Assembly (NCBI GenBank): GCA_964016885.1
Contig: CAXHJY010001380.1
Span: 1 to 64,000 of the forward strand
Source: Eledone cirrhosa
Taxonomy: Eukaryota
DNA: 64,000 nucleotides
Reading direction: 5' to 3'
A model generated the notes under the pieces. That model saw nothing but the letters and a program-made list of their open reading frames with translations, was not told where the DNA came from and did no database searches. Within the stretch, counting starts at the first letter, position 1; every line of letters begins with the position of its first letter. Positions 44,701 to 47,700 of the stretch are shown here, piece by piece. The position numbers and the translations under genes are program-made.

Positions 44701-47700
44701 CTTTCTGAAAAAATCAAAGAAAAACATACAAAATGAAATATATATATATATATATATATATATTTTCCACGCAATACTTTTAGTTAGCACCCCGAACACA
44801 TAATTGGGAATATAATCACTTATTTCCTAATGTTTGTTGAGAGTTGGAATTTGGCCGGAGTATCGCTAAAAAGCTTTCTCCGATATTGTATTTATTTACT
44901 TACTCTTGGCGCAGCAGATTTGAAAAAAATTCCCGGTATAAGGTTAGCATTTCTTTGTTTATTTTTTATATATGAATATTGATTGTTCCTTATATCTCAT
45001 TCTGTTATTTTGCCCGAGAAAATATCTGTGTGTGTCATCAAATGTTGTACACACATAGATATTTTTTCAATTTCCAATTGAGTTCTTAGCACGTGGCCTG
45101 AATTCCTTTCAGAGTTCATTGTCACGCGCATGTATTATTGTTTTTTTTGGCAGTAATTCATTTCCTCATTTTTTGAATCAGTTCGAGCACTTCTTTCAGA
45201 ACTGCTGGACTGGCAACCTGACAGATACCTCAGGGACAGAAAGTGATTATCGCTAAATGCTGATGTTGGTTAGATTATCAATATTAGTATTATTGGGGCA
45301 CCACTGATGAATTATAGGAGCCCACTTGAATATATATCTATTGATGGTATACAAGCTCCTACATAAATTAGTATAATTTCACCGAAATTGTAGGAATCCT
45401 ATAATGAAACGAGACGCCCGTCTGGGAAGAGATATATTAGATATGTCTCATTTGAAATAATACAGCCAATTTTCCACGCAATACTTTTAGTTAGCACCCC
45501 GAACACATAATTGGGAATATAATCACTTATTTCCTAATGTTTGTTGAGTGAGTTGGAATTTGGCCGGAGTATCGCTAAAAAGCTTTCTCCGATATTGTAT
45601 TTATTTATTTATTTATTTATTTATTTATTTATTTAGAGAGAGAGAGAGAGAGAGAGAGAGAGAGAGAGAGAGAGAGAGAGAGAGAGAGAGAGAGAGAGAA
45701 TATACTGAAGCGAAAACCAACCAAAACCGAGTGTGTTTTATTATATATTTCTAGCAATAGTATATGCTCCCCAAATATATATATATATATAGATGAATAA
45801 AATTAGTCCTTCATCAGTGATCTTCCAACCTTCATTGGTATTTCATTGCTTTAAAAATCATATACCTCTGGTTGGTGCGAGCAATAACTAAATAAAGTTA
45901 TTGGGACAAGTAAAATAGGGTGAAGTGAGCGAGACATGTAAACAAACAACGATGGTATTGCAACGGAAAGATAGGAAGAGACAAGTACATGATATCTGTA
46001 AGCTTAAGCTTGGTGAAATCATGGACGAGAGATTCAGACCATCCGACCTGGGTGAGATGTGAGCGAGAAAAAGATTTCACACAGGTCAAACGGGAGGAAG
46101 TGAGAGAGGGGGAGAAGCAGAGAGTGAGTGAGTGGAAGTGTGAGGAAGAGGCCAGCTGAGAGAGAGTGTGACTGGCAGAGGGGTTAAAAAGAAGGTGAGA
46201 GATACAGAGAGAGGGGAAGCAGTAAGAAAGAAACAGACAGGTCGCAGCTGAGGAAAAAATATAAATATAAGAAAAATGGCGTGCTGCGTGGTTGCACACC
46301 TGTGTGAAATCCTTTTCTCACTCACATCTCACCCAGGTCGGATGGTCTGTATCTCTAGCCCATGATTTCACCAAGCTTAAGCTTATAGATATCATGTACT
46401 TGCCTCTTCCTATCTTTCCGTTGCAATATCATCTTTGTTTGTTTACATGTCTCGCTCATTTCACCCTATTTTACTTGTCCCAATAACTTTATTTAGTTAT
46501 TGGTCACACCAATCAGAGGTATATGATTTTTAAAGCGATGAAATACCAATGAGGGTTGGAAGATCACTGATTTTTTTATATATATATATATATATATATA
46601 TATATATATATATATATATATATATATATATATATATATATATATATATATATATATATATATATATATATAATAAGGCGCATGACTTAGTGGTTAGAGC
46701 ATTGGGCTTGCAATTGAAAGGTTGTGAGTTCAATTCTCGGACCAGGTGATGTGTTGTTTCCTTGAGCAAGACACTTTATTTCACATTGCTCCAGTTTACT
46801 TAGCTGTAGAAATGAGATTGAGATAATAGGACTGGGGTCCCTATATTTCCACTGCAAAGTGGTCGTGGAGGTACCACGGCCAAAAAGCACCCAGCCCACA
46901 CTGTAAATGAGGTTGGTGTTAGGAAGGGCATCTAGCTGTAGAAATCAAACCAGAATCAGATCCTGTATGAGCAAGACAAGGTCAGCCGACCGGACACTGC
47001 CCACAACAGGACAACTCATCTAACCTATGCTAGCGTGGAAGAACGGACGTAAAATGGTGATGATGATGATGATATATAGTAGGATGGTATTATGTTAAAG
47101 AATGGAAGGGAACCACAAAGTAATGTACTCAATTTCTACTTAGTTTTATTTAATTTACAAGTGACATCTATAGGACTAGTACTGTTTCATTCAGAGGTAA
47201 ATATACGACATACCCTCTGGTGCTCGTGACCAACATATAAATGCTGCCTGTACCCTCTATAAAGTGGTTGGTGATACAAATGGCATCTAGTTATAGAAAA
47301 CTTGCCAAACAAGGGGTCAGAACTCTTCAACAGTGTCAAAGAGATGACAACCTCCTTAATGCTGATGCCATGATAATATACACCCTGTACACTTGATAGA
47401 GCGGGAATGTATGTCATGGAGATGTGGGAATATATGTCAGGAAGATGCGGGAATATATGTCAGGAAGATGCGGGAATATATGTCAGGGAGATGTGGGAAT
47501 GTGTGTCAGGGAGATGTGGGAATGTGTGTCAGGGATGTGGGAATGTATGTCAGAAAAATGTGGAAACATGTGTCTGAAAGATGTGGAAACGTGTGTCAGA
47601 AAGATGTGGAAACGTATGTTAGGGATGTGGGAATATGTGTCTGAGAGATGTGGGAATTTGAGTTGGGGGGATGTGGGAATGTATGTCTGAGAGATGTGGG

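Follow-up and report, generated by a model that had tools for sequence, protein, structure and literature searches.

A dispersed hammerhead-bearing repeat of Eledone cirrhosa probably forms a new non-LTR retrozyme family inserted into (TA)n targets

We analysed a 64,000-nucleotide (nt) stretch of DNA from Eledone cirrhosa (GenBank assembly GCA_964016885.1, contig CAXHJY010001380.1, positions 1 to 64,000, forward strand), hereafter the window, in which a hammerhead-bearing element lies at 44762-45605. With a probability of roughly 0.7, we read this element as a non-long-terminal-repeat (non-LTR) retrozyme, whose RNA would be cut from tandem transcripts, closed into a circle of ~700 nt and copied into (TA)n by a borrowed Penelope-like enzyme. 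Judged by its sequence, it is a new family within the animal non-LTR retrozymes already known and has the retrozyme features that were checked. A literature search found no report of this family.

The element begins with one full monomer of 707 nt on the + strand (35% GC), whose longest ATG open reading frame (ORF) is 50 amino acids (aa) when the sequence is taken as a circle. As originally predicted, its first ~137 nt recur at a spacing of 707, making about 1.2 turns: 44762-44841 is identical to 45469-45548 (80 nt, 100%), and beyond a 2-nt indel 44841-44902 continues as 45550-45611 (62 nt, 98%, spacing 709). The adjacent (TA)n run is present as well, in the form of (AT)13 abutting the 5' junction.

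44762..45468, + strand: full monomer, subfamily A, non-coding (self-comparison, genome matches, ORF check)
45469..45605, + strand: monomer positions 1 to ~135 again; its end, ~183 nt beyond the cut site, is the fixed 3' end of the family and the probable start of reverse transcription
45301..45425, + strand: type I hammerhead motif (sequence and alignment fold), degraded in the window copy
45429..45449, + strand: hairpin directly 3' of the cut site; its ATATAT is the 5' junction with (TA)n in many copies
45465..45591, + strand: conserved 3' domain lying between the cut site and the fixed 3' end; it has compensatory pairs and is a candidate signal for reverse-transcriptase entry
45016..45068, + strand: long hairpin with compensatory changes across subfamilies; 5' ends cluster on both sides
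45089..45129, + strand: second named hairpin, 8/9 pairs
44738..44763, no strand: (TA)n target run at the 5' junction (repeat scan)
45593..45699, no strand: (TATT)n, derived from the element's own 3' end, then (AG)32

To characterize the insertions, we took a sample of 78 from the first 100 rows of 3'-motif matches in genome order, a choice that takes no account of the 5' end; one row was left out, and three loci (L212, L220 and L229) gave no row. The 3' end falls at monomer 131-141 in 77/78 insertions, whereas the 5' ends vary. In eight reference copies, the cut site precedes this fixed end by 177-190 nt, give or take a few bases. Insertion lengths range from 32 to 2,502 nt, corresponding to less than one turn in 61 cases, one to two turns in 14, two to three in 2 and more in 1. 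TA runs occupy 74/78 of the 3' flanks and 60/78 of the 5' flanks. Target duplications of non-simple sequence (13, 18 and 20 bp) were read in 3/78 insertions, compared with 0.15 in shuffled pairs; the remaining ones are hidden in the TA runs. A minority of copies (L148, L174, L190 and L218) stop elsewhere on the 3' side, such as at monomer 199, 341 or ~605.

Target-primed reverse transcription characteristically leaves a fixed 3' end and a ragged 5' end. Therefore, the redundancy of the window copy represents 1.2 turns copied from a fixed start and not a random permutation. The original prediction had looked for permuted or tandem copies; tandem arrays of up to nearly five turns do occur, but random permutations do not, the 3' end being fixed. 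It had also proposed a reverse-transcribed copy of a ~700-nt circular RNA. The two kinds of end bear out the copying, and the circle itself we infer. In vitro, a Penelope-like protein initiates internally, downstream of the hammerhead, at AT-rich nicks (Frangieh et al., PMC11167929).

The multi-turn insertions carry a further record of copying. Across 113 complete subfamily A insertions, turns within an insertion differ by 2.5-3.0%, compared with 4.2% between insertions. Rare alleles are shared between turns 22 times, against 1.3 expected from the between-insertion rate (38 insertions of <2 turns; 10,772 aligned positions). The 5' ends also pile up at the cut site. With three rearranged insertions left out, 12 of 75 end in monomer 659-677, against 2.8 expected (Poisson 4e-5; 0.003 after scan correction). 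In an independent sample of 40 loci collected with another 3' motif, in which the six longest lengths were entered approximately, 12/32 insertions reaching the cut site end there, with about 2.3 expected. The cut site, which holds an ATATAT microhomology, stopped copying in 20/111 cases, whereas a longer TA run at 569-576 did so in 3/64 (Fisher 0.011). Passes reading through the cut site numbered 67/79 and 20/32. Such reading requires that the template be a circle closed by ligation or a multimer left uncut, or that the enzyme jump between templates.

We next describe the ribozyme. In the window copy, the core CUGAUGA is at 45304-45310 and GAAA at 45406-45409, with the predicted cut after C45422. 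Helix II comprises 9 bp (45311-45319/45397-45405) and encloses a 77-nt branched insert with two hairpins, just as first described. Helix III is formed by 45409-45411/45419-45421, and helix I by only 3 bp (45301-45303/45423-45425). The original claim of a complete type I hammerhead thus holds for the core, helix II, helix III and the cut site, but the copy is degraded: compared with the family, one helix I pair is lost through a missing C, the helix III palindrome is broken at 45417, and 7 positions depart from the subfamily A majority. Because of these 7 differences and the missing C, the window ribozyme is probably inactive. It is also the only hammerhead in this copy, as predicted.

In the commonest subfamily A form (47 of 129 distinct candidate segments), helix I has 4 bp and helix III contains a 6-nt palindrome. 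Subfamily B has a perfect 8-nt palindrome and subfamilies C and D have other near or full palindromes, helix III being self-complementary in all four through different letters. Homodimers are predicted to have energies of -14.7 in A, -6.4 in B, -9.6 in C and -10.0 in D, but only -5.1 in the window copy, and none of the helix III segments tested in this way forms a stable hairpin alone. This self-complementarity suggests a hammerhead of the dimer type; a short palindromic helix III with dimer-dependent cleavage is described as the metazoan type I pattern (PMC4209133, PMC3088659).

RNAalifold recovered the three-way junction from 15 monomers unaided, with type I topology. The original prediction had named covariation across copies as a check. 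In the hammerhead, 5/16 pairs are changed on both sides, every helix holding one or more of them, and 96% of cells are paired, compared with 25-49% in slid controls. The core, the three helices and the NUH triplet are conserved with compensatory changes. The 13 core bases vary by 0.9%, compared with 2.4% overall and 1.6% at non-CpG, non-polymorphic columns (p 0.024 for the latter comparison, with rows not fully de-duplicated). This pattern of substitution suggests that the ribozyme has been kept by selection.

The monomer as a whole is strongly structured. Folding beyond shuffled controls had been predicted for the + strand, and the window monomer reaches -207.2 kcal/mol with z -8.4 on that strand, compared with z -1.8 on the - strand (20 shuffles each). 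In circular folds of 11 rows, the + strand had the lower energy in 11/11. The z-scores of circular folds are noisy (8 shuffles), one monomer giving both -9.1 and -3.3, and at one locus (L124) the - strand scored -5.3 and the + strand -4.8. Two of the stems originally drawn are present in the circular ensemble. The 20-bp stem 45016-45035/45049-45068 has 16/20 pairs at probability >=0.83, and the stem 45089-45097/45121-45129 has 8/9 pairs at >=0.99, with one A-C mismatch. The third, the long-range stem 44943-44952/45255-45264, can be drawn, but was dropped at a probability of 0.00 and is missing from the alignment fold. A coding or endless ORF on the circle was likewise considered and ruled out, the longest ATG ORF measuring 25-62 aa in 6 monomers read circularly.

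In the 3' domain (45465-45591), 7/37 pairs are changed on both sides and 97.8% of cells are paired, compared with 31-47% in slid controls. In one of its stems, 4/5 pairs are changed on both sides between subfamilies A and B. Lying between the cut site and the 3' end, this domain is a candidate for the enzyme's entry signal.

The multicopy family foreseen by the original prediction is there and is dispersed. A search of the genome (3.0 Gb, 1,796 contigs) with the monomer returned 2,355 candidates, and the 40 scored include full-length matches at 93-98% identity to the window monomer. Exact 22-24-mer matches, which are lower bounds and count units, not loci, numbered at least 2,301 for a 22-mer common to the subfamilies, at least 979 for a motif near the 3' end, at least 865 for helix III and at least 566 for the 5' half of the ribozyme; the reversed controls of all four motifs gave 0. 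The monomers are 701-709 nt in subfamily A, 739-742 nt in B, 696 nt in C and 699 nt in D, with 32-36% GC. Since A copies lie a median of 2.1% from the column majority (0.5-7.1%, 86 units) and the subfamilies are 63-90% alike over aligned columns, subfamily A is young and the lineage old. The monomer closes head to tail, and its length of ~700 nt and its fold are retained across subfamilies. Tandem arrays run from 2 to nearly 5 turns, and at some loci two or more hammerheads are intact, whereas the window copy has one.

Some copies lie close together. At L033/L034 (G000:C1:18722850-18724403), two inverted retrozyme copies with the same 3' flank are about 1.5 kb apart. Neighbors <1 kb apart at shared TA runs also occur at L014, L040, L097, L166 and L265, where a copy lies beside one from another subfamily or beside a Penelope-like element, which suggests insertion hot spots. 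Among four sequencing runs, the deepest looks like DNA, because it yields a contig crossing the predicted exon-intron border of the host gene described below. A run labelled as another organism contains pieces over most of the monomer.

The helper would belong to the Penelope-like reverse transcriptase-endonucleases. ORFs combining reverse transcriptase (RT) and GIY-YIG domains are present in the genome, in which we found 10,596 GIY-YIG candidates (150 scored). Our search for a partner covered 62 Penelope-like loci (50 by BLAST and element profile, 12 of a further family) set against these 10,596 candidates, and may under-sample Naiad types, which have an N-terminal endonuclease. When five Penelope-like proteins were compared with 205 loci, 202 of which carry the element (some overlap) and 26 a Penelope protein match, the element was joined to a Penelope ORF at 0/202. 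This agrees with the original expectation that it is not an ordinary Penelope pseudo-LTR (pLTR). At the eight loci where a same-strand Penelope match lies <=1.5 kb upstream, the end of that other element, together with a TA run, separates the two. An apparent Penelope-retrozyme junction at L097 was rejected, being really a separate insertion in a TA run after that element's end.

The Penelope-like elements of this genome have hammerheads of their own. One abundant family (L257-L267), with a minimal hammerhead and frequent inverted 5' copies, shares its helix III with subfamily B. Its 3' ends lie ~35, ~72 or ~102 nt beyond the cut site of that Penelope-like family, and (TA)n comes next, at 14/14 listed ends. 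In another family, which we take to be Neptune-like, helix I measures 4 bp and helix III is palindromic; an internal TA run confounds its 3'-end distances, which were therefore set aside. The L094 family carries a compact hammerhead with helix II capped by GAAA. Penelope-like RT+GIY-YIG frames of 604-1,096 aa, stop to stop, occur at L091-L095.

Taking these observations together, we propose the following cycle. A tandem locus would be transcribed, and two hammerheads would pair through their self-complementary helix III and cut after C17 to free a monomer; the motif and palindrome are present, and activity is presumed by analogy with known dimer-type hammerheads. The monomer would then be ligated into a circle, as in the coral, mussel and axolotl retrozymes. 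A Penelope-like enzyme may nick a TA run and start about 180 nt downstream of the cut site, behind the structured domain; the fixed end, TA target and long target duplications are the observations behind this step, the enzyme being our assumption. Copying would proceed backward, usually across the cut/ligation site and sometimes for more than one turn of the presumed circle. As the end distributions suggest, it would stop at random, with an excess at the cut site and strong hairpins, and the complementary DNA would join by TA microhomology. A fuller version of this proposal is a long-lived lineage of ~700-nt, viroid-sized circles with a branched helix II and a separate, covarying 3' domain that positions the Penelope-like enzyme, a lineage that retrotransposes without a homologous autonomous parent and whose thousands of insertions record fixed internal priming, rolling copying of one molecule and cut-site stops. 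We hold this version tentatively, at slightly less than even odds.

Several observations weigh against the retrozyme reading or its parts. Rfam gave no match at gathering score in the window, and its 9 weak matches (E<=10) include no hammerhead, probably because the 77-nt helix II insert blinds it to the ribozyme. In most copies, A-U or U-U takes the place of the usual G-C as the first helix II pair; U-U at the helix II foot is described in metazoan type I hammerheads (PMC3088659). The covariation in the hammerhead and the 3' domain stems from about four subfamily splits, not from many independent events. In single-molecule folds, helices I and III have a probability of ~0 and helix II appears in only 2/6 monomers, which means that the predicted ground state differs from the active fold; in these models, failure to form alone fits dimer or protein dependence, yet also calls for caution. 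For Xenopus, in vitro cleavage is reported for only 1/9 of the retrozyme dimers that had been predicted (Li, Clavereau & Pollet 2026, 10.64898/2026.07.22.740005). Most hot-spot 5' ends lie 5-14 nt inside the cut site in ATATAT, with about five at -3 to 0, and 5' ends also flank the long hairpin (229-247, 6 vs 1.0; 307-325, 6 vs 1.4), so that stalling at structure could yield the same pile-up. In the array of nearly five turns (L176), allele blocks suggest later local duplication. The shared rare variants fit a reread circle or a linear multimer of like units equally. Finally, the 62 Penelope-like loci, a small sample, contained no element sequence except inserted retrozyme copies, and no autonomous element with homologous ends was found among those examined.

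Some of these points favor, for the same non-autonomous Penelope-type family, a linear template, either an uncleaved multimer from tandem loci or a cut monomer with template jumps, on which the hammerhead sets only some 5' ends. Such a template would account for the fixed 3' end, the multi-turn copies and the cut-site pile-up without ligation. Unprocessed RNA is also the main in vitro substrate of the anole Penelope-like protein (PMC11167929), and helices I and III are missing from the predicted ground state. Nevertheless, we consider it unlikely. Rare-allele sharing within insertions is 16 times the between-insertion rate, which requires multimers of like units; only 3/78 insertions have >=2 turns, so long templates are scarce; and circles are described as the main form of three tested animal retrozymes (PMC7229834).

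We regard it as improbable that the unit is a pseudo-LTR or gutted by-product of an autonomous Penelope-like element missed by sampling, given that none of the 202 loci is joined to a Penelope ORF and that upstream same-strand ORFs are separated by their own end and a TA run. Head-to-tail closure, the ~700-nt length and the fold, kept through subfamilies 63-90% alike, are likewise unlike a passive by-product. On the other side, the genome's Penelope-like elements likewise combine a 4-bp helix I and a palindromic helix III with a TA target and an internal 3' end, the partner search covered only 62 of their loci, and 24/57 Xenopus retrozyme families are reported as homologous to transposable-element termini, mostly Penelope-like (Li et al. 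2026). A satellite or short interspersed element (SINE)-like repeat, spread by DNA-level duplication or by a long interspersed element (LINE) and retaining its hammerhead as a relic, seems very improbable. LINE-type reverse transcriptases are present, two of them in the window, and the longest array shows signs of local duplication; however, this would not explain a fixed end inside a head-to-tail repeat, the absence of a poly(A) tail, dispersed copies mostly of <1 turn, the compensatory hammerhead changes or the 5' pile-up at the cut site. We prefer the retrozyme reading.

Under the retrozyme reading, the window copy is a 5'-truncated dead-end product of 1.2 turns, with one damaged ribozyme, lying antisense in an intron. 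No target duplication could be read at this copy, whose 3' flank is (TATT)n and then (AG)32. The neighboring host feature is:

43799..44704, - strand: poly-proline host frame, predicted formin FH1-like exon, on the strand opposite to the element

The original prediction placed an FH1 exon acceptor ~55 bp from the element. A predicted acceptor AG (44706-44705, - strand) of a poly-proline exon does lie 57 nt away, but the frame has no Pfam match, and its formin identity is a lead only, from a 0.87 atlas match. This exon is a single locus in the assembly, and a search for an empty allele of the insertion site gave none. Because the element is antisense in the predicted intron, its ribozyme would not cut the host pre-mRNA, which would carry the antisense of the ribozyme. 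The window copy is probably without effect on the host gene.

Other repeats lie in the window. Just downstream of the element, 45813-46571 contains 274-nt inverted repeats (95% complementary, 211 nt apart) near TA runs, resembling a miniature inverted-repeat transposable element. At 46678-46790, a head resembling a transfer RNA (tRNA) follows (TA)48 and probably belongs to a SINE; it has A/B-box-like motifs, and a similar stretch occurs at L014. ARAGORN calls no tRNA there and found no tRNA genes in the window. Two LINE-type frames are present, one at 27034-30495 (+; 1,153 aa; endonuclease, RT and zf-RVT) and one at 8233-10239 (-; 668 aa; RT). Two minisatellites lie at 32446-36082 (23-nt unit, about 150 copies) and 40722-42955 (59-nt unit, 38 copies, 96% alike).

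Non-LTR retrozymes were defined, and their circles shown in coral, mussel and axolotl, by Cervera & de la Pena (2020, PMC7229834), who put forward target-primed copying by Penelope-like enzymes as a hypothesis. As presented by Li et al. (2026), consensus lengths span 51-972 bp, many families are linked to pLTRs, with pLTR homology found for under half, the reverse-transcription step is called unresolved, and the sampling described includes no mollusc. The family described here resembles animal non-LTR retrozymes in being non-coding, with low GC (<50%), no LTR pair, a self-paired monomer and one type I hammerhead motif. It also has head-to-tail copies, target duplications >4 bp and co-existing Penelope-like elements. 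Its size lies within 51-972 bp, and the original view that 707 nt exceeds the known animal range therefore fails, although the family is about twice as long as the tested animal circles (170-400 nt). It differs in its branched helix II insert of ~60-90 nt, for which a literature search found no paper, in the predominance of dispersed copies of <1 turn, and in the lack of pLTR homology in the 62 Penelope-like loci, a small sample. The fixed priming site, between-turn shared variants and cut-site pile-up are not reported in the available parts of PMC7229834 and Li et al. 2026.

Its hammerhead resembles those described for Penelope-like pLTRs (PMC4209133, PMC11167929, PMC8557442) in its short helix I, self-complementary helix III and U-U or unpaired base at the helix II foot. 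As in accounts of endonuclease-bearing Penelope-like elements, it has AT/(TA)n targets, fixed internal 3' ends past the hammerhead, 5' truncation and partial tandems; unlike them, it has no ORF and no inverted 5' copy as a rule, and one dominant 3' end where they are described with two or three 'tail' ends. The distance from the cut site to the 3' end is ~180 nt in this family; it is ~85-92 nt for the anole element, and for one Penelope-like family of the same genome ~35-102 nt. Craig et al. (2021, PMC8557442) describe Neptune and Naiad elements as biased toward TA, and also Chlamys elements that are non-autonomous and lie head to tail. Those such as MRC1 are likewise multicopy head-to-tail insertions of Penelope type, but are described as generally sharing 3' ends with an autonomous family and mostly lacking hammerheads, whereas the present family has a conserved hammerhead and no partner that we found. 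With plant LTR retrozymes (600-1000-nt circles; PMC4918200, PMC5680766), as described there, it shares size, branched fold, lack of coding and a hammerhead absent from the predicted ground-state fold. It differs from them in having a type I and not a type III hammerhead, no LTR pair, duplications of 13-20 bp and not 4 bp, and 5' truncation like that of target-primed insertions.

The family thus displays a hammerhead form that Rfam misses, and supplies quantitative genomic footprints of a retrozyme step presented as hypothetical in PMC7229834. It makes exact predictions, namely that the RNA is cut after C661 of the monomer in a dimer-dependent way, that copying starts ~180 nt downstream and that a candidate entry domain spans ~130 nt, which fit the existing in vitro Penelope assay (PMC11167929). 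Its main value is that these footprints make the unproven reverse-transcription step of known retrozymes directly testable.

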